NCBI GenBank assembly: GCA_965221955.1
Contig: CBDCTA010000018.1
Location: 64,001-128,000 of the forward strand
From: Gammaproteobacteria bacterium
GTDB lineage: Bacteria; Pseudomonadota; Gammaproteobacteria; UBA4575
DNA length: 64,000 nt
Direction of reading: 5' to 3'
Position 1 is the stretch's first letter, and every line of letters starts with the position of its first letter. This document shows, piece after piece, positions 1 through 38,432 of the stretch. The notes beneath the pieces were generated by a model. It did no database searches. It saw only the letters and a program-made list of their open reading frames with translations, and was not told where the DNA came from. Both the position numbers and the translations under genes were made by a program.

Positions 1-1
1 A

Positions 2-760
2 GACCAGCTTAGCAAAAGAAAAATAAAACAACCCTTGTGCACTTGGAGTGAGTTATCTGAAATGTCTAATAGTAGCTATGTAGATGTGCAGTGTCACTCC
101 CTAACCCACTCTAGAGTATTCACAGCTTTACAATTGACTGATTTTATACACCCTAAATTTGATACATATTTTTACGGAAATATAAACATACCTATAGCTT
201 CAGACGATAATCCCATAAACCCAAATCGTCTTATAAAGTACGGGGATATCGTTTTTAAAAATGACTCAAGAATGAAGTGTACTAGACGTTTTAAAGAAAA
301 TGTCAATCTTTCTAAATATATGAGAGCGTATGTTAAAAAAAATGGTGATAAAGAATTTTTTAACAACCCCAAGTGGAGGAAAGAATTAAAAAATCATTAT
401 GAAAAATGGGACAAAAACAAGCTAGGAGAATTCGAAACCAAGGAAGAAATGATTTCTGCAGTTCACTATGAATTTATAACTTCAAAACAAATATTACAAG
501 AAAGACTTAATACACAAATTACACATTTCTGCTACCCGTGGTTTGAAAGTAGCACTCTTTCAGATCAAATTGCAGGAGAAACTGGATATGAACATTTGTA
601 TTATAGTATGAATATACCTTACGACTATGACAAAAGTATAAAGTCTCACATGAAACATACTCGGATCTCTGAAGAATACCTTCTCAGACTACCAGGCAAA
701 GGCAGAGTGTCATATTCTTCTGTATGGACAAAGAAAATCAAGAACTACATAGCACATTAG
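2..760 (+). CDS. Polysaccharide deacetylase (CE4/NodB-like), 5'-truncated by window edge
   Basis: Frame is open from base 2 (DQLSKRKIKQPLCTWSELSEM); LxWxELxEM, HSLTH metal motif and HFCYPW motif; long insertion between the motifs. Confidence 0.75.
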   Translation, partial: DQLSKRKIKQPLCTWSELSEMSNSSYVDVQCHSLTHSRVFTALQLTDFIHPKFDTYFYGNINIPIASDDNPINPNRLIKYGDIVFKNDSRMKCTRRFKENVNLSKYMRAYVKKNGDKEFFNNPKWRKELKNHYEKWDKNKLGEFETKEEMISAVHYEFITSKQILQERLNTQITHFCYPWFESSTLSDQIAGETGYEHLYYSMNIPYDYDKSIKSHMKHTRISEEYLLRLPGKGRVSYSSVWTKKIKNYIAH

Positions 761-1917
761 GCTAAACGTTTGTGATCTTCGAGCAACAAATCATAAACTT
801 TTTGAATTTGGCTAACGGTATGAGTTACCAAATAATTGCTCTTAAGCTCAATTAATGAATTACTACTTATTTTTTTAGCAAATTTTGCATTAGATAATAT
901 ACGGCATATTGCTTGAGCAATTTGCTCAGGCCTTTTCGGTGCAACTAATAAAGCAGTTCTTTCATGCTCTAATATTTCAGGAATTCCACCGACGCTAGTA
1001 GCAACAATTGGTGTTTGCATAGCCATTCCCTCTAATACTGATACCGGACAACCTTCAGAATGCGAACATATAGTTAGAACATCTAACAGAGATAATATTT
1101 CCAATACATTGTTGCAGTGACCTAGAAATATAATATTAGAAGATATATTTAATTTATGTGCCTTCTGCTCAAGCTCCTCACGCAAGTCTCCTTCACCGAC
1201 GATGACAAAACATACTTCAGGAATTTCTTGTAATACGATGTGTGCAGCATCTAAAAAATCAAAATGCCCTTTGATAGAATTTAATCTACCAACAATACCC
1301 ACTAATTTCTTTTCGACAGGCAAATCTAATGATTTAGAGATAGCTAGTTTAGTATCGGCATCGAACGGTTGAATACAATTTTCTGGGATTCCGTTATAGA
1401 TCACATCTGTTCGGTTCTTATTTAAATATCGTTCATTTACCATGAATTTTTTTACAGCTTTGGACACTGCTATTCCTTTAGCAGTTATAGATGAAAGAAT
1501 CCAATCAGCGATTCTTTGGTAAATAGGAATTTTACTATCAATCATATGCTCATGAACGATCACAGGTATGCGTAAAAATAAGCCCACTATTCTTCCAAAA
1601 TTTGTAGCGCCGTAACCATGACAATGTAATATTTTAATATTGTTACGACGTATAATACGCATCAAATCAAAAATAATTCTTATATCAAATTTATTTCGCC
1701 CTAAGTAATCTGCATTTATTTCATGCTCATCAAGCAATTTACTACCTTCATTTCGTCCGCGAAACACACACAAAAATAATTTATATTTAGTATTAGAAAA
1801 CTCCGGCCACCATGTCATTAAAACACGGGTTCCACCATGTATTGGCGAGCCCTTCATGCTAATTTTGTCGTATATATGTAATACGTGAATTTTTTCGCCT
1901 TGATTCATATCAGTCAT
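757..1917 (-). CDS. Glycosyltransferase family 4
   Basis: VGRLNSIKG, SHSEGCPVSVLEGMA (EX7E) and VGGIPEI motifs of GT-B/GT4. Confidence 0.9.
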   Translation of the reverse strand: MTDMNQGEKIHVLHIYDKISMKGSPIHGGTRVLMTWWPEFSNTKYKLFLCVFRGRNEGSKLLDEHEINADYLGRNKFDIRIIFDLMRIIRRNNIKILHCHGYGATNFGRIVGLFLRIPVIVHEHMIDSKIPIYQRIADWILSSITAKGIAVSKAVKKFMVNERYLNKNRTDVIYNGIPENCIQPFDADTKLAISKSLDLPVEKKLVGIVGRLNSIKGHFDFLDAAHIVLQEIPEVCFVIVGEGDLREELEQKAHKLNISSNIIFLGHCNNVLEILSLLDVLTICSHSEGCPVSVLEGMAMQTPIVATSVGGIPEILEHERTALLVAPKRPEQIAQAICRILSNAKFAKKISSNSLIELKSNYLVTHTVSQIQKVYDLLLEDHKRLA

Positions 1918-1986
1918 TTTATTAATGAGTACTTATAACCTGTAATGTTACAAGGAAATCAAGTTACTGAGAGAAAACTAAATTTG

Positions 1987-2514
1987 TTATCTTCTCGTAA
2001 AAATAACTTTCCCAGGATTGCCTTGCACAATCGAGTTTTCAGGAATCTTTCCAGAAACAACAGAATTTGGAGTTATAATGCTTCTGCTTCCTATCTCAGA
2101 ACCGTCTAAAATTACACACCCTGAGCTAATCCAAACATCATCACCAATCGTAATTCCTTTTGAAGTTTGCTGTTGCTTGCAGATTGGAATATCCAAGTGA
2201 TCATAACTATAGTTAATACTCACAATGGATGCATTAGGTCCGATCATACAATCATCACCGATTTTGATACCTTTTTTATGTGATGCGATAAAAGTATGTG
2301 CTGCGATAGCGACATTAGAACCTATTATTAATGGACCATCAGGCGCCTTGATTTTACAAAATGAGCTAATCACAGAACCTTTACCTATAGACAAGAAAGA
2401 AGTGAGTTCTACTTCTGATCGTGGACTAACCTTACATTTAAATTTAAGCCAACATTTTAACGTTACAAAAAACGGGGGCACAAAAAATCTGCGTAAAATT
2501 GTCGTAACATTCAT
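1987..2514 (-). CDS. Hexapeptide-repeat (left-handed beta-helix) acyltransferase
   Basis: Repeated IGxx hexapeptides (IGDDCMIGPN, IGDDVWISSGCVILDG) and C-terminal GNPGKVI. Confidence 0.88.
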   Translation of the reverse strand: MNVTTILRRFFVPPFFVTLKCWLKFKCKVSPRSEVELTSFLSIGKGSVISSFCKIKAPDGPLIIGSNVAIAAHTFIASHKKGIKIGDDCMIGPNASIVSINYSYDHLDIPICKQQQTSKGITIGDDVWISSGCVILDGSEIGSRSIITPNSVVSGKIPENSIVQGNPGKVIFTRR

Positions 2515-2519
2515 TAAAG

Positions 2520-2762
2520 TTAACTGCGTTCAGCAATAATACTTTTAATTTCATCCACGCTTAGCATGGACTGAATCTCTTTCATCGATAACTTTATTTT
2601 GTATTCATCCTCTATAGCTGTTACTAATTTAAGATGATTCATCGAATCCCATTGGTCAATATTATCTGGAGTATCTTGATCACTAATACTTCCTTCATCT
2701 ACACCAAATATCTCTGAAATTATTTGTTCAACCGATCTACTCATAGTTTCCCCAGCCTTCAT
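2520..2762 (-). CDS. Acyl/aminoacyl carrier protein (start may be ATG at 2744)
   Basis: Small acidic protein with WDSMNHL phosphopantetheine-attachment Ser motif. Confidence 0.85.
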   Translation of the reverse strand: MKAGETMSRSVEQIISEIFGVDEGSISDQDTPDNIDQWDSMNHLKLVTAIEDEYKIKLSMKEIQSMLSVDEIKSIIAERS

Positions 2763-3041
2763 TCATATTCATGTTGTATATAAATATTCTCATAAATTAC
2801 ATTCACAACCTTTTCATACAAATACTAAATCAACTTTAAATCCAAACCATAACTCACTGTAATATATTTATATTAAGTTTAGCCATAATAATATACTGGT
2901 AATTGTTATAAAAACTATCTTCCAAAACCTATTAAATAAACTTTTAATAAATTAATATTTTATTAGACCATGACCTAAAACAATGATATGAATCATATAC
3001 TAAAAGTAGATTGCTATTATGTGAATTAGTTAGACAGTTTC

Positions 3042-4019
3042 ATGAAAAAAGTTGTTGTTTTTGGAAACGGCAAAATAGCCGCCGAATGCTTAAAATTATT
3101 AACCGAAACTCAAGGAGTTGAGATCCGGTTAGTTTTATATAATCCAAACGATCCTTCACTTATAAGTCCAATTCGTACATTTTGTGAGAAGCACTCTATT
3201 CACTCAGAAGCTATTGGCTCAACTATTTTACCAAGCGTGACTGAACTTATTAGAGAAAAAAATCCGGATATTATTTTTAATATAAACAGTCACAACATAT
3301 TCGATAAAAAAATTCTTGATATACCTAAGATAGGCGCTATTAACTTTCACAATGGCCCTTTACCCAAATACAGAGGGCCAGGGTATGTAATTCCAAGTTG
3401 GGCAATATTCAATCAAGAGCATGAACATGGAGTAACTTGGCACTTTATGGATGAAGGAATTGATACGGGCGACATCATCGCACAAGATAAATTTTACCTA
3501 TCTAATAAAGAAACTGCATTAGAATTAAATTTCAAATGCATTACCGCAGGCATTAAGTTATTTGAAAAAAATATTGATGACATATTATCAGACAACTGTA
3601 ATCGAACTTCTCAAAAAGGACCTTCTTCTACATACTTTTCCTCTCAAATTCCTAATAATGGCTATATTGATTTTAATTGGCCATATCACAAGATTGATGC
3701 TTTCCTTAGAGCAACGGATTATAGGCCATATCAAAATCTATTTACGTATGCCAAAGTAAAATACAAAAACAATATATTTATAGTAAATACTGCATCGCTT
3801 CATAAACTAACCCATCACAACTATCAAAATGGTGAAATAATCAGCCTCTCTAGTAATTATTTACGTATCGCTGCAAATGATTCAATTTTAGACATAACAA
3901 AAGTTATGCATAAAGAAGACGATGAAATCTCTATTGAAAAACTTATTAAGGATTATCATATTTCCGAAGGAGATGTATTAAATTACAATTACTCAGATAA
4001 ATTCGAATTAGCATCATAG
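3042..4019 (+). CDS. N10-formyl-THF-dependent formyltransferase (Fmt/ArnA-like)
   Basis: INFHNGPLPKYRG and TWHFMDEGIDTGDII formyltransferase motifs, plus C-terminal Fmt-type domain. Confidence 0.88.
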   Translation: MKKVVVFGNGKIAAECLKLLTETQGVEIRLVLYNPNDPSLISPIRTFCEKHSIHSEAIGSTILPSVTELIREKNPDIIFNINSHNIFDKKILDIPKIGAINFHNGPLPKYRGPGYVIPSWAIFNQEHEHGVTWHFMDEGIDTGDIIAQDKFYLSNKETALELNFKCITAGIKLFEKNIDDILSDNCNRTSQKGPSSTYFSSQIPNNGYIDFNWPYHKIDAFLRATDYRPYQNLFTYAKVKYKNNIFIVNTASLHKLTHHNYQNGEIISLSSNYLRIAANDSILDITKVMHKEDDEISIEKLIKDYHISEGDVLNYNYSDKFELAS

Positions 4020-5564
4020 CTCCGCAAGTTTCTTCCGATCAATTTTGCCATTAAGATTCAATGGAAGTTTTGACATGAAATTAACATCTCTTGGCACCAT
4101 GTATGCAGGTAGTTTACCTGCCAAAAATTTTAACAATTGATCCGAATCAGCCTCCTCTCCCTCAATATACAATTTCAGATAAACTTTATCTTGATCATCT
4201 TTAGTTGGGACTACAGCCACGAGATTTACCTGAGTATACTCTCTTGTTAAGTGTTCAATCTCTTCCAACTCTATGCGGTGCCCGTCTATTTTTATTTGAA
4301 AATCTTTTCTACCACAATAAATATAATTTCCATGACTATTTATATAACATAAATCTCCAGTAAGATAAGCAATCTCATCAATCCCTAAAGTATTCGGTTT
4401 AATAAACACTTGCTTTGATTTTTCAGCATTATTCCAATAACTGTTCGTTACTTGATCACCCCATAAACATAATTCACCAATTTCTCCATTAGGAACATGA
4501 TTCAAATCATTATCTACAATTGCAGCATTAGTATTCTTAAACATTTTCCCAAACGTGAGCACTCCGTTTGATATATCTTCTGAAGAAATATTTATACTCC
4601 AGTCAAAGACGGTACATATGATAGTAGCTTCAGAAGGGCCATATGAATTATGTATAATAGAATTAGGCACGCATTTTGACCAACCTTCTACTAATCTGTG
4701 AATGAGTGATTCGCCCGCAAAAATACAATAACGCATCGCTTCTAGTCTTAACTCTGAAAAAAATCTCTCTATATATGACAAGACCGAAGGTACCATGAAC
4801 GCTACGGTAATATTATTCTCATCTAGTGTTTTTAAAATATTCAGATAAATAACACCTTTAGTTGGCACAATGTAACAGCATGCTCCTAAACAAAGTGGTG
4901 TAAAAAAAGAAACCACAGACATATCAAAACTTAATTGAAACATCTGCATAAACCGATCATTCTCATTAAAATCGTAATTGTTTTTATCTAACATTGTTAA
5001 CATGAAGCTATTAATATTTTCATGATAAATTGGAACACCTTTCGGCTTTCCCGTACTACCTGATGTGAACAATAAATAGAACATCTGATTCAAACTAACA
5101 TCGTCAGCGATGAGATCAAACTCACTCTCTTGCATCTCTTGTGTATAAAAAATGTTTAGCTCGTATGACGCATCACTATGTGCCTTAATCAAGGCATCAT
5201 GATACTTCGATGCAAGAACTAGCTTTAACTTAGTATCATTAATGATTGTTAAATTACGATCTGCAGGATTGTTTTCATTAATAGGCACATAGGCCGCACC
5301 CACTGCCAAAATAGCTATGATCGACGCATAGGTATACACATCATCCCCACTCAATACACCAATAATTTCTTCTTTATTGTAGCCACTTGCTACAATATTT
5401 TGCTTTATAGAATTAGCAATCCTAGTAAATTCTCTATAACTGTAATATTTCCCACGCGCATAAACCGCATGCTTGTCTGGACTTCTTTTACTATTCTCAA
5501 CTATTTTATTGATAATATAATTGGATGGCATTTTTGTATTACTTAAATCTATTATGAAGTGCAA
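4014..5564 (-). CDS. Stand-alone amino acid adenylation enzyme (DltA/NRPS A-domain-like); likely start ATG 5531
   Basis: A-domain core motifs YLLFTSGSTGKPKG, FDMSV, NSYGPSE, GELCLWG, YLTGDL, GRKDFQIKIDGHRIELEEIE, NGKIDR; no fused T or C domain. Confidence 0.9.
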   Translation of the reverse strand: MHFIIDLSNTKMPSNYIINKIVENSKRSPDKHAVYARGKYYSYREFTRIANSIKQNIVASGYNKEEIIGVLSGDDVYTYASIIAILAVGAAYVPINENNPADRNLTIINDTKLKLVLASKYHDALIKAHSDASYELNIFYTQEMQESEFDLIADDVSLNQMFYLLFTSGSTGKPKGVPIYHENINSFMLTMLDKNNYDFNENDRFMQMFQLSFDMSVVSFFTPLCLGACCYIVPTKGVIYLNILKTLDENNITVAFMVPSVLSYIERFFSELRLEAMRYCIFAGESLIHRLVEGWSKCVPNSIIHNSYGPSEATIICTVFDWSINISSEDISNGVLTFGKMFKNTNAAIVDNDLNHVPNGEIGELCLWGDQVTNSYWNNAEKSKQVFIKPNTLGIDEIAYLTGDLCYINSHGNYIYCGRKDFQIKIDGHRIELEEIEHLTREYTQVNLVAVVPTKDDQDKVYLKLYIEGEEADSDQLLKFLAGKLPAYMVPRDVNFMSKLPLNLNGKIDRKKLAEL

Positions 5565-5759
5565 TAATAGTGCATAAATACCTAAATTGTCTGTTTGTTC
5601 ATATTTATTATGAGATCATACGCACATAATAAATTTGTATCTTAATGCTGAGATTGAGACTTTTTGCAAAGCACTATTCATAAATTATAAGTATAGTATT
5701 TAATCACTTAGTAACACTGATATTTGCAGAAATCATCACTTCTACTGATAAATAAAAAA

Positions 5760-6758
5760 ATGGATAATTTTTGGGAAAATAGAAAAGTCTTGGTCACAGG
5801 TGCAGGAGGATTTACCGGCAGCAACTTATGCAACACTTTAGCAAGTAAAAATGCTGATGTTACTGCTTTTCTAAGAAAAAATGGTTCAAAACGCAATCTA
5901 GATTCAAAAATTAGAATTTATACAGGGGATCTCACTAATAGCTATGATTGCGATCAAGCTGCTCAGGGTATAGATACGATATTCAATATAGCTGCAATAT
6001 TCAGAAATGTTAAAGGGTCAGAACAACAGCTAAGAGATATCCACGTTCATGCTACTGAAAATCTAATGCGTGCTGCAAAAACAGCCGGCTGTCGTCGCTT
6101 CATTCACACCAGCACTATGGGCGTTCACGGACACGTTAAAAATGGCCCTGGTAACGAAGAAACAGAATTCTCACCTGGAGATGCTTACCAAGAGACAAAA
6201 GTAGAAGGTGAGTTATTAGCATTTAAATTAGCTAAAGAATTACCGATAGACCTATGTGTAATCAGACCGTGCGGAATCTATGGCCCAGGCGATACTCGTT
6301 TCCTTAAGTTAGTAAAGCCTATTAAAAAAGGACAATTCTTTATGATAGGAAGCGGTGAAACACACTATCATTTTGTCCATATAGATGATTTAGTAAATGG
6401 TTATTTATTAGCGGGCGAAAAAGAACATGCAATCGGTGAAGCATTTTTAATTGGCGGTGAAGAGGCACCTACTTTGAACGAACTCGCCAGAAAAATTGCT
6501 GAAATACAGAATGTGTCACCACCAAAATTTAAAATACCTGTATGGCCAATATATTACGCAGGCTGGTTGTGTGAAATTTTATTCGGCCTATTTAATATTG
6601 AACCCATTTTGCATCGCCGACGTGTAGCCTTTTTTACAAAAAATAGGCACTTCTCTATAAAAAAAGCACAAAATTTATTGGGCTACCAACCCGAGGTAAA
6701 TTTGGAAAAAGGGCTAAAGTCACTAATTGATTGGTATGAGAGTGAAGAACTAATTTAA
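5760..6758 (+). CDS. NAD-dependent epimerase/dehydratase (extended SDR)
   Basis: TGAGGFTG Rossmann motif, YQETK catalytic motif, RPCGIYGPGD; ATG 5760 preferred over the upstream TTG at 5724. Confidence 0.88.
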   Translation: MDNFWENRKVLVTGAGGFTGSNLCNTLASKNADVTAFLRKNGSKRNLDSKIRIYTGDLTNSYDCDQAAQGIDTIFNIAAIFRNVKGSEQQLRDIHVHATENLMRAAKTAGCRRFIHTSTMGVHGHVKNGPGNEETEFSPGDAYQETKVEGELLAFKLAKELPIDLCVIRPCGIYGPGDTRFLKLVKPIKKGQFFMIGSGETHYHFVHIDDLVNGYLLAGEKEHAIGEAFLIGGEEAPTLNELARKIAEIQNVSPPKFKIPVWPIYYAGWLCEILFGLFNIEPILHRRRVAFFTKNRHFSIKKAQNLLGYQPEVNLEKGLKSLIDWYESEELI

Positions 6759-6781
6759 GCTAGAGAACTATAGGGAAATTA

Positions 6782-8341
6782 CTAGGAAACTATATGCAAC
6801 TTTTTTGATATATTTTCTAACTGCACTTTCATTTGATTATCACTCCAGTTAAATTTATTAGCCATCTCTTTTGCAATTTTCTCGAGATTTTGTCTACCTA
6901 AATAACCTCGTTTAGCTAAATTATTTCTTCGCAAAACGTAATCTTCTAGATTAAATACCATCTCTGCTTCAATAGTATAAGAAATATGCTTATACATATT
7001 CTTCAAATAAATTGTGTTTATTTTATCTTGACTAATTATTGGCTGAAGACATAGATCATCAATATTTGAAAATATACTCTTATATTCTTGCAAAGAGTAA
7101 TTAGATATAGGTATTTTTTTAGCCTTATAATTAATACGATCAACGACCATATCAACTACTCGTGATGCTGTACTACGTGCAGTAGTATATTTTACTCCAA
7201 TTACCGAAATTAAATTATCAATGTTATCTACTCTAGCATGGTCAATTATATTAGTACGATGAGAACGTGAAGATCTATCATTAGCTGATGATTGTTCAGC
7301 TGGTGTAAAGCCTGAATATATATAGTTAACTTTATCCTGGCTTAAGTTTATTGAAGGATAGGCTTCGTTAATTTCATCCATAAACCCAGGTAGTTCAGAT
7401 GACACATCAGTATCCATTTCCTTGCTAATATCATGTTCAAAATGCGCTGTGCCAATCACAGTCTTATTTAGCCATGGGGTAAAAAAATACACTCGCTTAC
7501 TTTCACCGATCACCGCATCTGAGGCACGATTACTTTTAACACCAAAAGCAAAATCTTTCCTTATACTATCAATTACAATATTAAAGTTTTTCGTTAGCGG
7601 CTGAAAATTGTATTCATCAGTTCCAATACTAGATTTTAATAGCCTATAAGCCCATGGACCGGCAGCATTAATGATTTGCGAAGCTTTGATATCAAAATGA
7701 CGCCCTGTGACCATATCTTTGACATGTACACCTATAGATTTTTTGGAGGCAATTAATAGTTCATCAGCACGCAAATAATTTGCTAGACACAATCCCTGAC
7801 GATGAGCATCTTTTAACAGCTCTATATGTAATCGATCTGCATCAACTATTTGGCCATCGTACCAAACCGCACCACCTTTAATATTTTCACCATTTATTTC
7901 AGGTAATAACTGTTGGTAGTCGGCTTTAGAAATCAAATATCCATTAGGATAAGCTCTCTTTTTATTTTGCATGGCTGCAACTAAATTATGCATATTGATG
8001 GCCGCTCCTAGAGCTAGTGGCCCTCTAGATCCATATCCATAAGCAGGTAATATAAATTTAAGCGGTTTAATAAGCTTATTTGATATTTGTACCCACCTCT
8101 CACGTTCTTGAACTGACTCAAATACTCGTTTCAAATTGAGATGTTGGAAATAGCGAATTCCACCATGGATAATTTTTAAAGAATTGTGTGAAGTGCCGCT
8201 ACCAAAGTCATTAGCATCTATAAGACAAACTTTAAGTCCACGTAATACTGCATCTCGCGCAACAGAAATTCCATATATGCCCGCACCTATAACCAAAAGA
8301 TCAAATTGGTCATGCTCCAACTGATCAAGATTACGTTGCAT
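6782..8341 (-). CDS. FAD-dependent glycerol-3-phosphate dehydrogenase/oxidase-like protein
   Basis: IGAGIYG FAD motif, DFGSGTSHNSLKIIHGGIRY, INAAGPW, GVKYTTAR motifs typical of the GlpD/GlpA family. Confidence 0.82.
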   Translation of the reverse strand: MQRNLDQLEHDQFDLLVIGAGIYGISVARDAVLRGLKVCLIDANDFGSGTSHNSLKIIHGGIRYFQHLNLKRVFESVQERERWVQISNKLIKPLKFILPAYGYGSRGPLALGAAINMHNLVAAMQNKKRAYPNGYLISKADYQQLLPEINGENIKGGAVWYDGQIVDADRLHIELLKDAHRQGLCLANYLRADELLIASKKSIGVHVKDMVTGRHFDIKASQIINAAGPWAYRLLKSSIGTDEYNFQPLTKNFNIVIDSIRKDFAFGVKSNRASDAVIGESKRVYFFTPWLNKTVIGTAHFEHDISKEMDTDVSSELPGFMDEINEAYPSINLSQDKVNYIYSGFTPAEQSSANDRSSRSHRTNIIDHARVDNIDNLISVIGVKYTTARSTASRVVDMVVDRINYKAKKIPISNYSLQEYKSIFSNIDDLCLQPIISQDKINTIYLKNMYKHISYTIEAEMVFNLEDYVLRRNNLAKRGYLGRQNLEKIAKEMANKFNWSDNQMKVQLENISKKLHIVS

Positions 8342-8379
8342 AAAAATTTATAACATTAATCAATTTCTAAAAAAAATTG

Positions 8380-9141
8380 TTATTTTCGACAAAATGCCAT
8401 TAAGTGATGCCCGGTTCTACTAATTAAAGATTTTGGAAGCATATTATACGAGTCAACAAAAATTTTATTATATAAAAGTGCTTTTAAACCGCTGTGTACT
8501 TTTGTTGCTACCGGAAACCTTTCAGGAACTATTTCTACTGTAGAAAACAGTTTCAACATATTTTCAAACTCATTTATAGAGTACATGTAAAAAACTGGGG
8601 CATCTAAGTGATCAATTTTAACTTTCATTAATTTATGCATGAAATTTAACCAAGATTTACGATTTACAGTCATCAGTATCGCTTCACCACCAGGTTTAAG
8701 CACTCGGTTAATCTCATTAATCATTTTTTGTGGGTTAGGAGTAAAATGCAAAACTGTATGACAATAAACCATATCAAAACTATTATCAGGAAATTCCATT
8801 TTCTCCCCATCCATAACTTGGAAACTACCTTGCAATTTACGCATCGCAAAATTATTTTTTGCCAAATCGATGGAGTGAGCTGCAAGATCAATACCCGTTA
8901 CCTCCGCACCACCTTTTGCAAAACGTGTAAGATCATTTCCAGTACCACAGCCTACATCAAGAATTTTTTTGTCTTTATAACCAGAAAAGTTAACTACTTT
9001 GGGTAAATAATGGAGTTTTTCGAATCTGTATTCTTCAATTTCTTGAAAAAACTCTAATGTCCCTGCCGGGCTTTTAGCCACTTTCCAATCATGCACATGA
9101 TTGTTCCAGAACTCACGTACTTCCTCTTTAACCATGACCAC
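8380..9141 (-). CDS. Class I SAM-dependent methyltransferase
   Basis: ILDVGCGTG, FPDNSFDMV and RVLKPGG motifs. Confidence 0.9.
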   Translation of the reverse strand: MVMVKEEVREFWNNHVHDWKVAKSPAGTLEFFQEIEEYRFEKLHYLPKVVNFSGYKDKKILDVGCGTGNDLTRFAKGGAEVTGIDLAAHSIDLAKNNFAMRKLQGSFQVMDGEKMEFPDNSFDMVYCHTVLHFTPNPQKMINEINRVLKPGGEAILMTVNRKSWLNFMHKLMKVKIDHLDAPVFYMYSINEFENMLKLFSTVEIVPERFPVATKVHSGLKALLYNKIFVDSYNMLPKSLISRTGHHLMAFCRK

Positions 9142-9156
9142 TTGAATATATTAAAT

Positions 9157-10344
9157 TTATGAATGTTCTATCTGATCTATCGCAGCATAAAGCTTGCTCA
9201 CTTTATGCATGTAGATTTCATCAGAATATTTTATTTCTGCAAGCTGTTGAGCTGCTCGTGCCTTTTCATCACCCAACGCTGGATTCTTAATTAACTCCGT
9301 CATACCTTGATTTAAACCCTCTTTATTTGGTGGCACTAATATAGCAACCTTTTTATTTAACACCTGAGTATGAGTAAGTATATTGGTAGCAACAATAGGT
9401 TTTCCTGAGCGCAAATATCCATAAATCTTTAAAGGCGTATTCGTCCCTGTACATCTTGGTGAAACAATAATATCTGCCGATTGAATATAAGATGGTATTT
9501 CTGATGGGTGCACAGTGCCAGTGAACAAAATTGATTGATCAATACCTAAGCTTATAGCTAACTTTGTATAATTTTGAATTTGTTCATCACGACCGCCAAC
9601 TAAAATCAAAAAGGCGTGAGGATTCTTATCTAAGGTGCCATTGAATGCATTAAATAATATATCGATACCTTGATAAGCTTCAAATGTACCTGTATACAAA
9701 ATAATTTTTCTATCTTGTAAAGAGTAAAGCTCTCTTATATTTTTAACATTATTTGAAAAAACTTTACTATCATCAGCAGTATTTTCTATCAGCTCATGCG
9801 GTGTATTTAAATTAAAACTCTCGACTAAATTAGCCAGCTCAGGACATATAGTAATCACTGCGTCACAACTATTAAGTACTTTGCTTTCAAAATATTCAAA
9901 GAATTTTTTTAAAAAAATGAAATTGAATGCACCAAAGTTTTCCAACTGCTGTGGAAGACTACTATGCATATCATAAACATGCAGCATGTTATATTTTTTT
10001 GCAAAATACATAGCAAAGAATGCAGCTTCTTCATGAGAATGAATCACATCATATTTGTTTTTTTTGAGTAACTTTCTAGCAGTAAAATATAGACTAATAT
10101 CTAAAAATATTTTTTTCACAGATGGGCCTATTTTTACATCATTGATGATTCCGTAATTACTAGATCTTATAATTTTTAGGCCATCAAATTCGATATCCTC
10201 ACCAAATGGGTAAGTTACCATATCTACTTTAAATCCCATTTCACATAATGCTCGCACACGATGTAATACGCTGAAAGGAGTTCCACGCGCCCTGAAGTAA
10301 GGCTGTGGAGTTAGCATTAGGACTCGATTATTATTAGCAGGCAT
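9157..10344 (-). CDS. Glycosyltransferase family 4
   Basis: YTGTFEAYQGID, NTPLKIYGYLRSGKPIVAT GT-B C-terminal motifs. Confidence 0.85.
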   Translation of the reverse strand: MPANNNRVLMLTPQPYFRARGTPFSVLHRVRALCEMGFKVDMVTYPFGEDIEFDGLKIIRSSNYGIINDVKIGPSVKKIFLDISLYFTARKLLKKNKYDVIHSHEEAAFFAMYFAKKYNMLHVYDMHSSLPQQLENFGAFNFIFLKKFFEYFESKVLNSCDAVITICPELANLVESFNLNTPHELIENTADDSKVFSNNVKNIRELYSLQDRKIILYTGTFEAYQGIDILFNAFNGTLDKNPHAFLILVGGRDEQIQNYTKLAISLGIDQSILFTGTVHPSEIPSYIQSADIIVSPRCTGTNTPLKIYGYLRSGKPIVATNILTHTQVLNKKVAILVPPNKEGLNQGMTELIKNPALGDEKARAAQQLAEIKYSDEIYMHKVSKLYAAIDQIEHS

Positions 10345-11908: not shown

Positions 11909-13885
11909 TTATAAATTTACTTGGACACCTTTAGGTATTTTATAAATATGGATAGCATCCTCGATCGAATTAAACTGATGATATTCTACTAGCATATCAT
12001 CAATTTTTTTGTATATAGGCGGAAGCGTTATTTTTTTACCAGGACCATAAATTACAACCCATCTCTCAAAATTTGAATCTGCAATCTTTGTTTTAAATGA
12101 ATCTTCTGTATAGAGCAAATCATACCCGCTCCAGATATCTCGCTTCCCGCCACATGCTGAACGACTTGTAAATGAATCGTGCGTGAGCGGCAAGTAAAAG
12201 TAAGCTCCTTGATGGTCTTTTATGTAGTAATCGATAACTGGAACAGCAGTAACTAATATACTGTTGGCCTGTCTACGCGAATTAATATATTCAGCAGCTG
12301 ATTGGAAATCTATGCGAGGGTAATAATGACGTGTACGAGGCCCATCGTAATCAAGTCGAAAATTAACCCTTTCTGAATCAATTTCTATTGCGTCTTTCGC
12401 AGAAAAATCATCAGAAATTAAAAAGAATAAACTTACGAGTATGATAAGGCTTGCGTTTTTTGACCACATCGAAAAACCAGCAGGTACCATACGAACGATT
12501 ACAATGGCACATACCGACAAAATAAGTGGGTATAGGTAATACGTATACCTTGAATCTACGTAAAATGTAGACATCATTGCAGTAATCATTACTAAAATTA
12601 ATATTATCCCTAGCAACCTATTAAACTTAACATCATTATCTCTCTTTGCATTGAATACTAATAAAAACGCTAATACAGCAGCAATGGATGCGAGAATTGT
12701 TTGATACGGCATGGCCGAATACCATGGTTTAAATATTCGAAAATAAACATCTGGATAACTAAACATTGAATTAATAACTTCTTTTATAGCCTGCACCAAT
12801 CCAGAGTTGCTTGACTGTATAAAAATATAAAAACCTAAGCCGACAAACCAAAAAATAATTGCCAAGCAATAAATAATAAAAGCACGACTATTTTCTTTAA
12901 ACCAAGCGAACATTGTGTTTTTACTTAACAGGTAAACCGCAACTAAACTTCCTAGGAAAAGAGCAAGCTGATTTGAGATAACAGCAATAATCGCGATTAT
13001 TAACCCAATCGTTGCTACTGGCTCCGCACCTTTAACTCTGTAAATTGAATATGCGATTAAACCTATTCCCCATACCCCAAGCACTAACGCTAATATTGGA
13101 AATAGAATAAAGTCCTCTGATAGAGCCAATATTCGCTCGGGGAAAAGCACAGGAAAGGTTGTCCCATTGGCTGCAGTACTTACGATATATTCAGGAGGTA
13201 AAAATTGACCAACACCTAAACGCCGAAACGGAATAATATGGGTTACAGTTATTAGTACTGCGATACCCAACCACGCAATGTAGTCATATATTTTAATAGA
13301 TTTTTTATTCAGAATTGGATTGAGTACCGCAAGTCCAAAACAAAATATTGCACCCGCATAAACAAACACAGACAAAAAAGCCAAGCCATAACACAACCAA
13401 GTATTAACTAATTCGCTTGGTTTATTTGCTTGAAGTACTAACCAAACCTGCCAAATTACAATAGTTTGAAATAAAGCATACATTCTCCCAAATCGTGAAA
13501 ACTCAATCTCCCATAACGAGAAGGCCAAAAAGAATATCCCAATTACTGCTGCAGACCATCCTCCGATTTTTCGACAAATCAAAAATATAGCTGGAAATGC
13601 CGCAATATTAGCAATAAGTGGAATTATTCGAATAGCAAGTTCAGGATCATTCAAATAAAGTCGAAGTGGTACTGTAAGATATTGTTGAAAAATCCCGCGA
13701 ATATAATAACCACCACATTCAAAGCGAGGTAAGTTTGTCCGAATAATATTTTCAATCGATGAAATAAAATAGTACTCATCAACAGCAACTGGCCATTTAC
13801 CTAGGCCTTTTAACCTTATAATTATCCCCAGTATTGAAATAACTACAGCGAGTAATATATATGGGTTTTTTGTGTTTGTTTTCAT
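11909..13885 (-). CDS. Polytopic membrane protein, GT-C fold glycosyltransferase-like (ArnT/PMT-like)
   Basis: Many hydrophobic helices, acidic DE pair after TM1 (VAVDEYY), RMYAL motif, soluble C-terminal domain. Confidence 0.6.
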   Translation of the reverse strand: MKTNTKNPYILLAVVISILGIIIRLKGLGKWPVAVDEYYFISSIENIIRTNLPRFECGGYYIRGIFQQYLTVPLRLYLNDPELAIRIIPLIANIAAFPAIFLICRKIGGWSAAVIGIFFLAFSLWEIEFSRFGRMYALFQTIVIWQVWLVLQANKPSELVNTWLCYGLAFLSVFVYAGAIFCFGLAVLNPILNKKSIKIYDYIAWLGIAVLITVTHIIPFRRLGVGQFLPPEYIVSTAANGTTFPVLFPERILALSEDFILFPILALVLGVWGIGLIAYSIYRVKGAEPVATIGLIIAIIAVISNQLALFLGSLVAVYLLSKNTMFAWFKENSRAFIIYCLAIIFWFVGLGFYIFIQSSNSGLVQAIKEVINSMFSYPDVYFRIFKPWYSAMPYQTILASIAAVLAFLLVFNAKRDNDVKFNRLLGIILILVMITAMMSTFYVDSRYTYYLYPLILSVCAIVIVRMVPAGFSMWSKNASLIILVSLFFLISDDFSAKDAIEIDSERVNFRLDYDGPRTRHYYPRIDFQSAAEYINSRRQANSILVTAVPVIDYYIKDHQGAYFYLPLTHDSFTSRSACGGKRDIWSGYDLLYTEDSFKTKIADSNFERWVVIYGPGKKITLPPIYKKIDDMLVEYHQFNSIEDAIHIYKIPKGVQVNL

Positions 13886-30567: not shown

Positions 30568-31740
30568 TTACGATTTATTCCATAAAGGCGCTGGAAGAAT
30601 ATAGTCTCGATAGTTATTTGGATCACCCACTTCACCTGCCTCAGCAGCTTTTATGATGTTATACATTTCTCTTGCGCTTACATAGTGTAAAAAATTATTT
30701 TTCTTATCATTGTAAGTATTCTCTAGATCAGTAAAGAACTGATCCATCTCAGATCCCAATAAAAATTCCATATTTTCTTCTTGTGCGCCATGAGTATGAA
30801 GCTTAATAAACACCCACTCTTCTCTGCCTTTTACATGGATATTACATCGCAACCAATGTTTCATTCTATTAATAGTGGGACGTTGCTCTATCCGAATATC
30901 TGAGTTTTCAATTTTAGGAATCTTAAGTATTCCTCGCTCTTCCCACGTTATGCATAAAGGGCCCTGAACTATCATTAAATCACCAGACTCATCACCACGT
31001 ACTCTCACATCTATACCATCATTATGAGATTTAGGTTTAGATGGATCATCCTTTGCATAGTAAATACTGTTGATTTTCTTTGTTTGCGAACTATCTGGAG
31101 CGGCAGGTAAAGTAAAGTCAGCATAACAATCTAATTCCTTTAACAAAAGAATTTCGTTATTTAGCCCACACCATTTTCCATCCGATCGAGAATTATCTAA
31201 ACACCAATTACCATGAATAAAACCCCATTTTATCTTGCCTGATTTAGGGCACTTTGAGAGTGCTCCATGATCTTCATGCAAGGTTTTTACAAATGCCTCA
31301 ATGGTATTGCAGAAATTTTCTTCATTATCATCATTATGGTGAATATGTACTTCAATTTCGCCAAAACCTTCGCTACATAATTTAGCAATTTTATCTAAAT
31401 AACTTTTCTCATACTCTTCTTCTGGATAAAAAAACGAATGCTTTGGATAACAGCCATCAGCATCTTTATGACATGAAGCAATTTTTTTATACTCTTTTGA
31501 CCATCTCTCAACACGTTGAGCTTCAACTTTTTTATCAGGTTTCCCCCACATTGGTTCATAATGATCCACAAAACAAAACATAATGTGTCTAGGTAATGAA
31601 GAGGCACGTGAAAAACTTAATTTACTTAAGTAATAAGTAGGCACCCATATATGGGCATTTCTAGTCTTGAGAATAAAATAGATTAAAATGGCTAAACTGA
31701 ACCCGACACCGAAAAGTATATATAGCCACAACAAACTCAC
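30568..31740 (-). CDS. Membrane-anchored hypothetical protein, possible metal-dependent hydrolase/deacetylase
   Basis: N-terminal TM helix; His/Asp-rich motifs VDHYEP, EVHIHH, FIHGNW, KLHTHG; overlaps upstream gene by 4 bp. Confidence 0.6.
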   Translation of the reverse strand: MSLLWLYILFGVGFSLAILIYFILKTRNAHIWVPTYYLSKLSFSRASSLPRHIMFCFVDHYEPMWGKPDKKVEAQRVERWSKEYKKIASCHKDADGCYPKHSFFYPEEEYEKSYLDKIAKLCSEGFGEIEVHIHHNDDNEENFCNTIEAFVKTLHEDHGALSKCPKSGKIKWGFIHGNWCLDNSRSDGKWCGLNNEILLLKELDCYADFTLPAAPDSSQTKKINSIYYAKDDPSKPKSHNDGIDVRVRGDESGDLMIVQGPLCITWEERGILKIPKIENSDIRIEQRPTINRMKHWLRCNIHVKGREEWVFIKLHTHGAQEENMEFLLGSEMDQFFTDLENTYNDKKNNFLHYVSAREMYNIIKAAEAGEVGDPNNYRDYILPAPLWNKS

Positions 31741-32885
31741 CTAGAAGTCCTTTCCCATGCTGGATTGACGTTACTTGATAAATATTTAAAGAAACCTACA
31801 AATAACGCAGCATTCATACTAACAAAGAATATTATTATAGAGATTATTTTTGGCATTTTATCTGTAAATGAAAATATCATTGAGAATGCTGAAAAAATGT
31901 AGACTGACAGTTGAATAACTAGCAAAATCATGAACACTGGGTTTTCTACCAGAATAATGCTTGTAATTAAACACAGTAATAGTAAATGAGGGGCAAACCA
32001 TCTCAAAACTTTATGTGAGATATATGTAAAGAAATGCGTGATGCTTGTAGCAGGATTAAGAAATTTTAGAAGCCTAAAAAATGCTTGATAATTACCTGTT
32101 CCTATCCTTACTCTTCTTTTGAACTCATGCTCAATTGTTTCAGGTGCATATTCATGCGCTATAGCTTCTGGCTCGTATATCATTTTATTACCTTGTAAGA
32201 CAACTTGCATCGCTACCATGAAGTCATCGATAATTGTATCGGGTAACAGTGGTATAAATAATTGCTTGCGTATTGCATAAATAGCGCCATTCGCGCCTAA
32301 CAATCCATTAACTTTATTTTCATTAATTTTTAGAAACTTCTCATATTTCCAGTAAAACCCATCTTGATTACTGCTATGCGACGATGCATGTATTTCCAAC
32401 TCTCCACAAACCCCTCCAATCAGTGGATCACTAAATGGCTTGACCAGTTTTTTAACTACATTTGATTCAAATAAAGTATTTGCGTCTGAAAAAATCAAAA
32501 TTTCTTCCTTTGCCTCCTCACACAAGTCATTTAACACAGAGGCTTTACCACGGCGTTCTTGGAATGGAAAGAATTTTAAATTTTTTAGACGATGGTTCTG
32601 AATTAAAGTATTTGTTTTATCAGTACTGCCATCAGATCCAATATAGATATATAATTTTTCAGACGGATATTGTAAATCATTCAAATTATCAAGTCTTTCG
32701 GTTATATCTATCTCTTCATTATATGCCGCAATAATGATTGCAACTTCAGGCCATTGAATATTTTCAGAATCACTAACTACTGACGTTTTCATCTGTACCA
32801 ATTTTGAAAGAAAAAATATCAGAACTGGATAAATTAGATAAGAATACACGACTAACGCTGCAGCGACCCAAAATACAAATTCCAT
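31737..32885 (-). CDS. Glycosyltransferase family 2, membrane-associated
   Basis: IIIAAYNEE, GSDGSTD, FSDAN, GANGAIYAIR, IIDDF, RRVRI; N- and C-terminal TM helices. Confidence 0.9.
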   Translation of the reverse strand: MEFVFWVAAALVVYSYLIYPVLIFFLSKLVQMKTSVVSDSENIQWPEVAIIIAAYNEEIDITERLDNLNDLQYPSEKLYIYIGSDGSTDKTNTLIQNHRLKNLKFFPFQERRGKASVLNDLCEEAKEEILIFSDANTLFESNVVKKLVKPFSDPLIGGVCGELEIHASSHSSNQDGFYWKYEKFLKINENKVNGLLGANGAIYAIRKQLFIPLLPDTIIDDFMVAMQVVLQGNKMIYEPEAIAHEYAPETIEHEFKRRVRIGTGNYQAFFRLLKFLNPATSITHFFTYISHKVLRWFAPHLLLLCLITSIILVENPVFMILLVIQLSVYIFSAFSMIFSFTDKMPKIISIIIFFVSMNAALFVGFFKYLSSNVNPAWERTSR

Positions 32886-32902
32886 AGGTTTATTCGCTTG
32901 AC

Positions 32903-33550
32903 TTAGTGTCTAGATAATTCGCTGACAGGACATATATCATATCCTGCAGATATCCATTTATCTAACAACTTAGGTAATGCCTTTATAGTATAAGAATTAT
33001 CATCGTGAAATAAGATGATGTCACCCGATTTAACTGGATTTTTATCAAATCTTTCAAGCAAAAACTCCTCGCTTTTTTGCGTGTAGTCCATGCTATCGTA
33101 TGACCAATAAATAATCTGTCTACCTGATCTAATTAAGCGGACTAGTAATGATGGCTTTAGCCTTCCCCTAGGGGGTCTAAATGCTTTTGGTCTTGATGTA
33201 TTAATTTTAGGTAGTAGTAAATCTAACTTTGCAATATCATCAATTTGCTCTTTTGGAGTGAATTTTTCGAACTCCCAGTGGCTATAACTATGGTTATAAA
33301 CATCATGGCCGGCAGTGATGATGTCTTGGAATATTGTTTTATATTTTTTCACGTGGTCACCTGTAACAAAAAAGCTTGCTTTTAGATTTCGATCACCAAG
33401 TATTTTGAGCACTTCACATGTATAACCTTCATGCGGGCCATCATCAAATGTGAGATAGATCGTTCTTTTACTCTGCGGACCAGATTGGATAATCCATTTA
33501 TCAGGCAAAAATTGATAACAAATTGATTTGAGTTTACTTGTTAACATCAA
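32903..33550 (-). CDS. Polysaccharide deacetylase (NodB/PgdA-like)
   Basis: LTFDDGP, NHSYSH, FRPPRG, IILFHD. Confidence 0.92.
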   Translation of the reverse strand: MMLTSKLKSICYQFLPDKWIIQSGPQSKRTIYLTFDDGPHEGYTCEVLKILGDRNLKASFFVTGDHVKKYKTIFQDIITAGHDVYNHSYSHWEFEKFTPKEQIDDIAKLDLLLPKINTSRPKAFRPPRGRLKPSLLVRLIRSGRQIIYWSYDSMDYTQKSEEFLLERFDKNPVKSGDIILFHDDNSYTIKALPKLLDKWISAGYDICPVSELSRH

Positions 33551-37319: not shown

Positions 37320-38432
37320 TTAATTAGTTAACTTATGAAAAAGATATATCAACTTTGAAGTCAACAACTTATTAAATATAATAATATTAAACATTGTGGC
37401 CGTATTGCACCCATATGCAGATTTATATGACTCAGCTTGGCCCATCATAAAATCGTAAATATATTTTTTATCATCAATCGCAAGCTTAATAGCTTCTGTA
37501 TGCGCTAAAACACCTGGTGAAAGTTTTTTATATTGCACTAAATCAAATCCCGATTGATAATAATAAACTACGTCATTCATGCAAAAATTGTAAAGTATAG
37601 ATAAATATTTTCCATTAAGCTTTATATACAAAAGTTGTAATTCGTTTTTACTTAAAAACATTTTTGCAATTTTTTTATGAAACTGCACAAATTCTGAAGA
37701 CGTGAAAGCTCCGCTTTTACCTCTTGCTTTCCATCTAGCCGAATGAAGCTCTGCAAGACGCTCAAATTCTTTATTAACTTCATTCTCATCGCTTACACAC
37801 TTAACCTCTAATTTACCTACGGTATTAATTTTTTTATTATTAGTTTTAATAGATCGTTTAATTCTTGGCGAAAGAGTTTGATAATATTTTTCCCACGTAT
37901 TGGGCAGTTTTATATAATAGCGGTAGCCACACATATCAGACTTAATAGAAAATCCAATTTTTCTAGCTTCATCGACTAAATCACGATAAATTACTGAATT
38001 AATTAAAATCCTTGATAATCTAATGGTAGCCCAACCATTAATATTTTCTGAGAAATACTGCAGTATTTGGCGACATACTCGTTGTTTAAACTGATCTTGT
38101 GTTATGACATCCAGATACTCTGAGCACACCTCCATATGATCTGGCTCACCTGTACCCAAGAAGTAAATATGCTTTAAATGCGGAAATGTAGAAGTCGTTC
38201 TTATATAAAATGGCGCAATTGCTACCACTTTTTGTGCATTGCTTAATACAAGTATATTGAGTTTTGTATCCTTAGTACGATATACGTCCCACCACGTATA
38301 CATCCATGACCAGGTTAAAAAAGGTGAAGCTTGGTCGAATGAAAGCAGAAGATCGTTCCAACAATCCTCTAACTCTTTGAATCTCTGTGTAGAATCTACA
38401 ATCTCTAAAGCAAGCTTATCAGTATCTGACAA
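37320..38432 (-). CDS. GNAT-family acyltransferase (CelD/BcsL-like)
   Basis: PFLTWSWMYTWW, IAPF, YYQSGFD, LSPG, YDFMMG...YK. Confidence 0.82.
   Translation of the reverse strand: MSDTDKLALEIVDSTQRFKELEDCWNDLLLSFDQASPFLTWSWMYTWWDVYRTKDTKLNILVLSNAQKVVAIAPFYIRTTSTFPHLKHIYFLGTGEPDHMEVCSEYLDVITQDQFKQRVCRQILQYFSENINGWATIRLSRILINSVIYRDLVDEARKIGFSIKSDMCGYRYYIKLPNTWEKYYQTLSPRIKRSIKTNNKKINTVGKLEVKCVSDENEVNKEFERLAELHSARWKARGKSGAFTSSEFVQFHKKIAKMFLSKNELQLLYIKLNGKYLSILYNFCMNDVVYYYQSGFDLVQYKKLSPGVLAHTEAIKLAIDDKKYIYDFMMGQAESYKSAYGCNTATMFNIIIFNKLLTSKLIYLFHKLTN

Follow-up and report, generated by a model that had tools for sequence, protein, structure and literature searches.

Aminoacyl and N-formyl-aminoacyl substituents occur on some bacterial surface polysaccharides, and the acylation of a surface polymer from a carrier protein is already known. 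In Vibrio cholerae O1, the tetronate genes RfbK-RfbO provide an acyl carrier protein (ACP), an AMP-ligase and an acetyltransferase of left-handed β-helix (LbH) type that together N-acylate an amino sugar of the O antigen. In that system a hydroxy acid takes the place of the amino acid, and a formyltransferase is lacking. Zwittermicin biosynthesis uses an FkbH enzyme and an adenylation (A) domain as alternatives for the formation of hydroxymalonyl-ACP and aminomalonyl-ACP. These two are the nearest analogues known to us of the locus described here, which lies at the start of a 64,000-nucleotide (nt) stretch of a Gammaproteobacteria bacterium (lineage UBA4575; assembly GCA_965221955.1, contig CBDCTA010000018.1, positions 64,001 to 128,000), hereafter the window. 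Five genes of this locus encode a stand-alone A domain of the nonribosomal peptide synthetase (NRPS) type, a stand-alone formyltransferase, a carrier protein, an LbH acyltransferase and a family 4 glycosyltransferase (GT4). We propose that they form part of a carrier-dependent acylation cassette for an XrtA-type exopolysaccharide (EPS) in which the usual loading enzyme has been swapped: the A domain would load the carrier, formylation would take place on the carrier, and the LbH enzyme would transfer the product, a reading that we hold with modest confidence. The A-plus-formyltransferase version of such a system appears to be new.

Three described systems share parts of this logic. The Dlt pathway likewise combines a stand-alone A domain of about 500 amino acids (aa) with a small dedicated carrier to decorate a surface polymer, and the automatic naming of the Joint Genome Institute labels many relatives of the window A domain DltA. 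Unlike Dlt, the locus includes a formyltransferase, would be directed at an XrtA-type EPS and lies in a genome without a membrane-bound O-acyltransferase (MBOAT), and transfer is proposed to be cytoplasmic, via the LbH enzyme. The A domain scored 282-292 bits against the DltA models (cut-offs 476 and 560; 292 bits against 476), and its original description as DltA-like is therefore to be read as architecture only. In the LpxC/LpxD and NodB/NodA systems, de-N-acetylation is followed by N-acylation from an acyl-ACP; here too an LbH enzyme is coupled to a carrier, and a deacetylase of carbohydrate esterase family 4 (CE4) is adjacent, although the window LbH is not LpxA/LpxD-like (39 bits against a cut-off of 207) and the deacetylase is linked in two loci only. 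Starter modules of formylation (F), A and peptidyl carrier protein domains, such as that of linear gramicidin synthetase LgrA, unite the same three activities found in the window, whereas here the activities reside in three separate genes of a genome without a condensation domain, and the LgrA F domain matches the formyltransferase at only ~32 bits.

The remaining comparisons concern single components. FkbH/ACP glyceryl loading relates to the locus through an FkbH cassette that shares its carrier family with the window, which has an A domain instead; glyceryl loading serves polyketides, whereas the context here is a polysaccharide, and the acyl group would be passed to the LbH enzyme. The pairing of the TIGR03098 ligase with the TIGR03099 decarboxylase has the kind of locus and the decarboxylase in common with the window, but the window A domain is not a TIGR03098 protein (192 bits, cut-off 592). 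With ArnA and other sugar N-formyltransferases the window formyltransferase shares the fold, the Asn-His-Asp triad and the C-terminal subdomain; it differs in having no aminotransferase partner in the locus and in falling into a clade separate from E. coli ArnA.

The open reading frame (ORF) list together with Pfam and NCBIfam scans placed the five genes, and their domains, as originally predicted. The A domain (516 aa; 4014-5564, minus strand) matches AMP-binding (1.8e-63) and AMP-binding_C, and the formyltransferase (3042-4019, plus strand) matches Formyl_trans_N (7.3e-18) and Formyl_trans_C (2e-07); the two genes are convergent, on opposite strands, and their 3' ends overlap by 6 nt. The ACP-like carrier (80 aa; 2520-2762, minus strand; PP-binding 7.9e-05, 23.3 bits against a cut-off of 20.8), the LbH hexapeptide acyltransferase (175 aa; 1987-2514, minus strand; Hexapep 1.3e-17), which is the proposed transferase of the carrier-bound acyl group, and the GT4 (757-1917, minus strand; Glycos_transf_1 3.5e-37) form one co-directional run that ends with the GT4. 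With a gap of 5 nt between the carrier and LbH genes, this run agrees with the operon claimed for them. The setting is an XrtA/PEP-CTERM exopolysaccharide island, again as predicted, with exosortase A at 45334-46866 and TIGR03013, TIGR03007 and TIGR03027 proteins, all at 40-48 kb; upstream of the window lie more glycosyltransferases, a flippase and a PEP-CTERM protein. A promoter and terminator scan of positions 600-6000 gave no enrichment over shuffled sequences.

From the observed gene content, motifs, synteny, loader swap and co-occurrence we infer the chemical steps and the acceptor, and also that formylation comes before transfer. The A domain would activate a free alpha-amino acid and thioesterify it onto the holo-carrier. 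The formyltransferase would N-formylate the carrier-bound aminoacyl group with N10-formyl-tetrahydrofolate as donor, and the LbH enzyme, presumably translationally coupled to the carrier, would take over the resulting N-formyl-aminoacyl group and attach it, still in the cytoplasm, to a repeat-unit sugar. Attachment to a hydroxyl would give an ester, and attachment to an amine that the neighboring CE4 deacetylase has exposed would give an amide by LpxC/LpxD-like logic; in the latter case the deacetylase may act first, as LpxC does before LpxD in lipid A synthesis. The GT4 enzymes would supply or extend the acceptor.

A search of 40 relatives for an orthologue of the A domain returned one, in a genome of the same genus (G013; 50% identity), while the next matches (29-32%) lay inside NRPS megasynthases. 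G013 carries a ten-gene block syntenic with the window and repeats the 6-nt convergent overlap of formyltransferase and A domain. Identities were 77% for LbH, 59% for the carrier, 52% for the formyltransferase and 50% for the A domain. The block continues with four genes that, like the FkbH form described below, had no place in the original prediction: an extended short-chain dehydrogenase/reductase (SDR) resembling HpnA and 3beta-HSD (5724-6758, plus strand; 83% identical in G013), a GlpD/GlpO-like flavin adenine dinucleotide (FAD) oxidoreductase (6782-8341, minus strand; 63%), a class I S-adenosylmethionine (SAM) methyltransferase (8380-9141, minus strand; 84%) and a second GT4, GT4b (9157-10344, minus strand; 76%), which is the first gene of the conserved block. 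The SDR and the FAD oxidoreductase are conserved cassette members, and conservation of the methyltransferase is confined to the genus. Beyond GT4b, the G013 block includes a decarboxylase (76%) and a positional counterpart of a membrane protein (26%). The G013 gene after LbH (L013:6907-7887, minus strand) encodes a PF03706/TIGR00374 protein, of the family of the MprF transmembrane domain, with weaker relatives in L055, L057 and L061.

The LbH enzyme led to a wider distribution. Searching 400 genomes of the class and metagenome contigs gave 23 further loci with LbH orthologues of 44-80% identity. Of the 20 loci in which the upstream side of LbH is visible, 18 have a carrier gene as the immediate neighbor there (the exceptions are L069 and L071; in the remaining three of the 23 the contig is cut), and in several loci the stop of one gene and the start of the other touch or overlap. 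The gene preceding the carrier is FkbH-like (PF21211) in 15 of 16 visible loci; the A domain with formyltransferase takes this place in G013 only. The seven other loci that show 5 kb or more of upstream sequence all have GT4b, the FAD oxidoreductase and the SDR as well. The methyltransferase was not found in FkbH-type loci outside the genus, and the formyltransferase was found in none of 15 FkbH-type cassettes. The window has the ACP-LbH pair and the upstream GT4b-FAD-SDR set of this cassette without an FkbH-like loader, and PF21211 had no match in the window's own genome. The A-plus-formyltransferase form of the cassette is rare, and the FkbH form is common and widespread.

Both forms occur within one genus. 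The complete genome G001 carries the order GT4b (68%), methyltransferase (76%), FAD oxidoreductase (53%), SDR (37%), FkbH, carrier (30%) and LbH (53%), with FkbH in the slot taken by the A domain and formyltransferase in the window. The SDR, 83% identical to the G013 copy and 37% to that of G001, co-varies with the loader, and the window carrier is 59% identical to that of G013 and 28-30% to the FkbH-type carrier of G001. Carrier, LbH and SDR thus diverge by loader type, whereas GT4b and the methyltransferase do not, a pattern we would expect if the first three handle an acyl group defined by the loader. Because FkbH enzymes are known to load a glyceryl unit onto a carrier, the acyl group that the common cassette adds to its polysaccharide is most likely a glycerate-derived acid, and the one added by the version in the window an amino acid. 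A broader generalization is possible, and we advance it tentatively: that this is a widespread plug-in acylation cassette, made of a WDSM-type carrier, a small LbH lacking the usual His and GT4, FAD and SDR partners, with an interchangeable loader. Its loaders would be FkbH for glycerate- or lactate-type acids, an A domain with formyltransferase for N-formyl-amino acids and, as a third form, an acyl-CoA-synthetase-like enzyme with formyltransferase.

The FkbH cassette, in the order GT4, FAD oxidoreductase, SDR, FkbH, carrier and LbH, was seen at L104 (G001:C1:1405000-1424999), positions 2178-9479, and in L051, L055-L060, L062-L066, L068 and L072. Its probable role is to attach an acid of glycerate or lactate type to a sugar, through an ester or an amide bond. 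A fusion of MaoC dehydratase and ketoreductase (KR) follows LbH in L051, L056, L058, L060 and L063, and a further GT4 lies downstream in L056, L058 and L060. An MBOAT gene stands near the FkbH-type cassette in L052 (G123:C794; 3304-5974), L060 (5312-6859) and L063 (8850-10160), accompanied in L052 and L060 by a protein of 354-376 aa that belongs to no family.

The sequence of the A domain supports its assignment as a putative stand-alone NRPS-type activator of amino acids that adjoins a carrier. It scored 313.7 bits against the amino-acid adenylation model TIGR01733, just short of the cut-off of 317.4, and among solved structures NRPS A domains match it best, followed by DltA. All core motifs are present: SGSTGKPKG at residue 168, FDMSV at 213, YGPSE at 308, YLTGD at 400, GRKDFQIKIDGHRIE at 418 and NGKIDRK at 505, which we take to be NRPS motifs A3, A4, A5, A7, A8 and A10. 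The true start is suggested to be shorter, at M12, near position 5531. D214 and K507, presumably the residues that bind the alpha-amino and carboxylate groups, are kept in every relative compared, and the substrate should therefore be an alpha-amino acid whose amine is free, so that formylation would follow activation. Since the A domains of the window and of G013 (L013:10299-11804) are only 50% identical while their SDR, methyltransferase and LbH proteins share 77-84%, the comparison suggests that the two congeners attach different amino acids. In the carrier, the phosphopantetheine site is Ser40 within WDSM, and translation likely starts at M7, near position 2744.

Close homologues of the formyltransferase (E<=1e-35) are confined to 4 of the 56 genomes of the order, all of a single genus (G000, G013, G008 and G009). 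In G008 and G009 its homologue (38-40%) lies at another genomic site and converges on an adenylating enzyme of another kind, an acyl-CoA-synthetase-like AMP-binding protein, with a KR-type SDR, a 104-aa carrier with a GIDSL site and an LbH (44-46%) as neighbors. A homologue of the formyltransferase was present in one of five A-domain genomes checked, the Ignavibacteriales locus L014, where it (37%) lies 2 kb from an A domain (42%) in a cluster with ketoacyl synthase III (KAS III), FabG and an ACP and no sugar genes. Across 401 genomes of the class, all 17 non-self matches to the formyltransferase (E<=1e-30) fell in open frames of 593-3370 aa; 10 of the 11 scanned hold Formyl_trans_N and AMP-binding in one frame, and the eleventh is truncated by the end of its locus. 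Adjacency to an A domain and a carrier, a mark of NRPS F domains, for which there is no curated model, was found in the window and in G013. These associations support a recurrent link of the formyltransferase with adenylating enzymes and, within the class, a closest similarity to F domains fused with A domains.

Further loci turned up in these searches. The third cassette form occupies L114 (G008:C20; 3-3838) and L113 (G009:C67; 5306-9269), outside the EPS island and with htpG as a neighbor; each of the two contigs terminates at the formyltransferase. Large NRPS genes that open with a formyltransferase domain, then a linker of ~250 aa and an A domain, make up the class loci L026-L042 and occur in 15 of 400 other class genomes, with a partial Condensation match in that linker in L027. 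The A-domain search of the genome collection gave ten loci, nine with stand-alone A domains (38-42%) from Ignavibacteria, Bacteroidota and Chlorobi-type genomes and a tenth with a 28% match within a 4212-aa NRPS. Stand-alone A domains in L015-L018, L020 and L021 (metagenome-assembled genomes of Ignavibacteria, Bacteroidota and Chlorobi type) stand as tandem pairs in L015-L018. In the Pfam-scanned loci L015, L020 and L021, the gene after each A domain encodes a GNAT-like or unassigned protein of 225-236 aa, and L015-L018 and L021 have a carrier nearby, L015 has LuxE/LuxC and L021 has FkbH. These look like small-molecule or lipo-amino-acid clusters.

In the formyltransferase, N101, H103 and D141 align with N102, H104 and D140 of E. 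coli ArnA, which we take to be catalytic. The protein falls below every curated cut-off: PRK06988 formyltransferase (137 bits against 316) and ArnA (131 against 777) are the best NCBIfam models, the dTDP-amino-sugar formyltransferase model gave 48 against 238, and the Fmt model TIGR00460 gave 98.6 against 201.5. In a quick maximum-likelihood tree of 58 sequences, with ArnA as the sole sugar formyltransferase included, the window protein fell inside a clade of stand-alone formyltransferases (SH-aLRT 88), with separate clades for fused F-A domains (99) and for Fmt with ArnA (90). The genome has a separate Fmt locus on contig C22 (G000:C22:344824-345306), where the open frame covers 171 aa and the remainder lies in another frame, probably through an assembly frameshift.

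Condensation, thioesterase and MBOAT families had no match among the 52 window ORFs scanned, as first noted. A DltB/MBOAT or condensation-domain partner, which was envisaged as possibly lying just outside the window, was likewise not found: in the genome, which is 96.6% complete, PF03062 had no match in a search whose control detects the family in B. subtilis, and a whole-genome search returned no Condensation domain.

Metagenome data extend the association of the cassette genes. In a collection of 5.8 billion proteins, homologues of the formyltransferase and the A domain came from contigs of equal size (18240, 3252, 570337, 4888, 5835 and 36818 nt), as did LbH homologues (61-80%) for three of these sizes (4888, 570337 and 5835 nt). 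LbH was paired in the same way with the formyltransferase at 2467 nt and with the A domain at 156024 nt. The LbH homologues nearest to that of the window (72-82%) include P0252, P0254, P0256 and P0257, which have such equal-size contigs, while FkbH-type LbH proteins reach at most 61-66%. Three genes on a contig of 4888 nt would, indirectly, leave little room for anything besides a window-like arrangement. The predicted co-occurrence of all five genes holds for four of them in G013, the GT4 being the exception, and, by equal sizes, for A domain, formyltransferase and LbH on at least three metagenome contigs.

Several observations weigh against the proposed sequence of loading, formylation and transfer. 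The predicted overlap of the formyltransferase stop with the A-domain gene exists, but the genes are convergent and, being on opposite strands, are not co-transcribed. The GT4 at 757-1917, counted originally as part of the module, is absent from G013, where a flippase-like PF03706 protein takes its place, and it drops out of the conserved set; homologues of it (35-52%) lie downstream of LbH in G123, L056, L058 and L060. The metagenome associations are indirect, since they were judged from equal contig sizes and same sources and not from gene order. One AcpS-type phosphopantetheinyl transferase, ~50 kb upstream on the same contig, is the only type in the genome. No amino acid was called from the ten pocket residues of the A domain, which were placed by motif anchoring and not by a reference alignment: the window code, DMVFIASIIK, is unique among 127 relatives and differs at seven of ten positions from the DFMPICAVYK of its own G013 orthologue.

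The LbH enzyme is a further point of tension. Its best models, WbbJ, WcaF and Maa, all fall below cut-off (WbbJ 69.7 against 243, Maa 49.7 against 314), and its best solved relatives are the sugar O-acetyltransferases Maa, LacA and NeuO. By sequence, the protein groups with acetyl-CoA-dependent sugar O-acetyltransferases (Maa, LacA, NeuO and WbbJ), and the earlier likening to LpxA and LpxD does not hold, with 36-39 bits against the LpxD models (cut-offs 207-242) and 31 against LpxA (226). An acyl-carrier donor is proposed from gene context. No invariant His was seen in an alignment of 20 LbH orthologues, whereas a conserved catalytic His is, we assume, a feature of the Maa/LacA/WbbJ family. 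A complex prediction for an LbH trimer with the carrier (alignments A2 and A3) placed one control above the complex and is used neither for nor against binding.

This family membership suits a different reading, in which the LbH is a plain acetyl-CoA O-acetyltransferase and the (formyl)amino acid is released reductively by the SDR or moved to a lipid, so that the A-domain module would yield a small molecule or lipo-amino acid and not an EPS substituent. The SDR has weak thioester-reductase and NAD_binding_4 matches, and the nearest relatives of the A domain (38-42%) sit in non-EPS clusters with GNAT-like, LuxE/LuxC, FkbH or KAS III genes. We nevertheless judge this reading quite improbable: carrier and LbH are adjacent in 18 of 20 loci across three loader types, both co-vary with the loader, the closest LbH homologues (72-82%) come from contigs equal in size to those with the A domain, the formyltransferase or both, and the cassette is embedded in an EPS island, with GT4s, flippases and the XrtA core around it. 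The covariation of the SDR with the loader (83% against 37%) and the presence of SDR and FAD oxidoreductase in all seven other loci with sufficient upstream sequence fit another possibility, that the carrier-bound unit is oxidised by these two enzymes and methylated before transfer, parallel to the formation of hydroxymalonyl-, aminomalonyl- and methoxymalonyl-ACP, so that the product would not be a simple formyl-amino acid. The NAD, FAD, SAM, loader and ACP classes match the methoxymalonyl-ACP pathway, and the alternation of FkbH with an A domain matches zwittermicin extender-unit biosynthesis. The enzyme families differ, however: the known pathway has HADH-like and acyl-CoA dehydrogenase-like enzymes where the cassette has an extended SDR and a GlpD-like protein. 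The latter two could equally modify the sugar acceptor, and the pocket residues depart from the serine code. Of the alternatives, we give this one the least credence.

The formyltransferase itself invites a third alternative, which we consider unlikely overall: that it is an ordinary sugar N-formyltransferase of ArnA/WbkC/QdtF kind, with an NDP-amino sugar, or the aminoacyl group once transferred to the sugar, as its substrate. Acylation of the polysaccharide would remain the task of the A domain, carrier and LbH, and the formyltransferase would never meet the carrier. Its best solved relatives are indeed sugar formyltransferases (ArnA 80.7 bits, GDP-perosamine formyltransferase 76.8, QdtF-type 70.9; sugar N-formyltransferases at 77-58), followed by Fmt at 52 and, lowest, the LgrA formylation domain at ~32, and PRK06988 and ArnA lead the NCBIfam models. 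A sister relationship to NRPS F domains was dropped because the tree gave an unresolved three-way split, and so no supported placement with F-A domains exists. Two DegT aminotransferases, both on other contigs, imply that amino sugars exist in the cell. Yet neither the cassette nor the set of 52 scanned window ORFs contains a DegT-type aminotransferase, adenylating enzymes adjoin the formyltransferase in unrelated contexts, as with KAS III, FabG and ACP in L014, and its nearest class relatives are fused to A domains (10 of 11 scanned). In FkbH-type cassettes, where formylation would find no amine, it does not occur (0 of 15). Loading by the A domain, formylation on the carrier and transfer by LbH, the mechanism first predicted, thus stands as the reading best supported by comparison, weakened by the family of the LbH, the poor conservation of the GT4 and the solved relatives of the formyltransferase.

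Neighboring genes bear on the acceptor. The CE4 (NodB/PgaB-type) deacetylase, whose 3' part covers positions 1-760 (plus strand), has 397 aa and starts 433 nt before the window (G000:C18:63567-64760). It matches the PgaB N-terminal domain model (1.4e-17), carries TFDD and HSLTH motifs and shows no obvious signal peptide by eye. A homologue (33%) follows LbH and GT4 in G123; with the window, this makes the two loci in which the deacetylase is linked. We regard it as a candidate maker of the free sugar amine. At 31737-33550 (minus strand), the gene of a NodC/PgaC-like family 2 glycosyltransferase (GT2) directly precedes that of a NodB-like deacetylase of 215 aa (88.6 bits against the NodB model), and this pair may be another supplier of free sugar amines within this EPS locus. 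A PaaK/F390-synthetase-like adenylating enzyme and two FemAB-like GNAT (Acetyltransf_6) genes (34657-36003 and 37320-38432, minus strand; L024:17548-18639, plus strand) are located within the XrtA core or next to it, and could form a separate second route for adding acyl or aminoacyl groups.

The two genes beyond GT4b are neighbors outside the cassette. The XrtA-associated pyridoxal phosphate-dependent decarboxylase (TIGR03099; 10655-11881, plus strand) scored 509 bits against a cut-off of 478. Members of this family exceed the cut-off in 21 of 41 relatives, and in 15 of these 21 there is no canonical TIGR03098 ligase; the ligase, supposedly its constant partner, exceeds its own cut-off in 6 of 41, where it immediately adjoins the decarboxylase. 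In G014, G022 and G019 the decarboxylase stands beside UDP-glucose dehydrogenase without any cassette, one of the reasons why it was rejected as a module member, and in several genomes it marks, as a lone gene, the edge of a variable EPS island. Canonical ligase-decarboxylase pairs also occur apart from any cassette in G016, G018 and G025. The idea that the window A domain stands in for the TIGR03098 ligase was likewise discarded, since the A domain and formyltransferase replace FkbH and not the ligase. A polytopic membrane protein of 658 aa (11909-13885, minus strand) has a PMT_2 (GT-C) match below cut-off (E 0.0019). An Arn-like reading, with the CE4 enzyme as an ArnD-type deformylase and the 658-aa protein as ArnT, was rejected: the CE4 enzyme has no similarity to E. 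coli ArnD, and the membrane protein, besides its sub-threshold PMT_2 match, is not conserved with the cassette and is missing from FkbH-type loci.

In the literature searched, which includes few subscription journals, we found no described system of the A domain, formyltransferase and carrier type, including under the combination of formyltransferase, adenylation, ACP and O-antigen. Nor did we find a paper there that describes the FkbH form of the cassette, or one on FkbH with O-antigen or with polysaccharide and glyceryl, on exosortase with acyl-CoA ligase and decarboxylase, or on tetronate with perosamine and ACP. The words decarboxylase, ligase, acyl carrier and formyl are absent from Haft 2006 (PMC1569441), and the single paper that combines FkbH, acyl carrier protein and exopolysaccharide is one on pathway reconstruction (PMC7901079). 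An N-formyl-L-alanyl group has been reported on the O2 antigen of Vibrio anguillarum (PMC10059132), and may serve as a chemical precedent; the main text of that article mentions no formyltransferase, carrier or adenylating enzyme, and it assigns no genes to such substituents.

If the proposed mechanism is correct, the locus would provide a cytoplasmic, MBOAT-free route from a free amino acid to a polysaccharide substituent. The natural swap of FkbH for an A domain within one genus offers a ready comparison, in which the backbone genes are the same and the loader differs, and the FkbH-carrier-LbH cassette could explain glycerate- or lactate-type esters of exopolysaccharides. Should the plug-in view of the cassette hold, the product of the window would be an N-formyl-aminoacyl amide or ester on an XrtA exopolysaccharide, and its genes would be the first set for substituents like the N-formyl-L-alanyl group of V. 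anguillarum O2. Loader swapping would then diversify the surface polymer between species of a genus.

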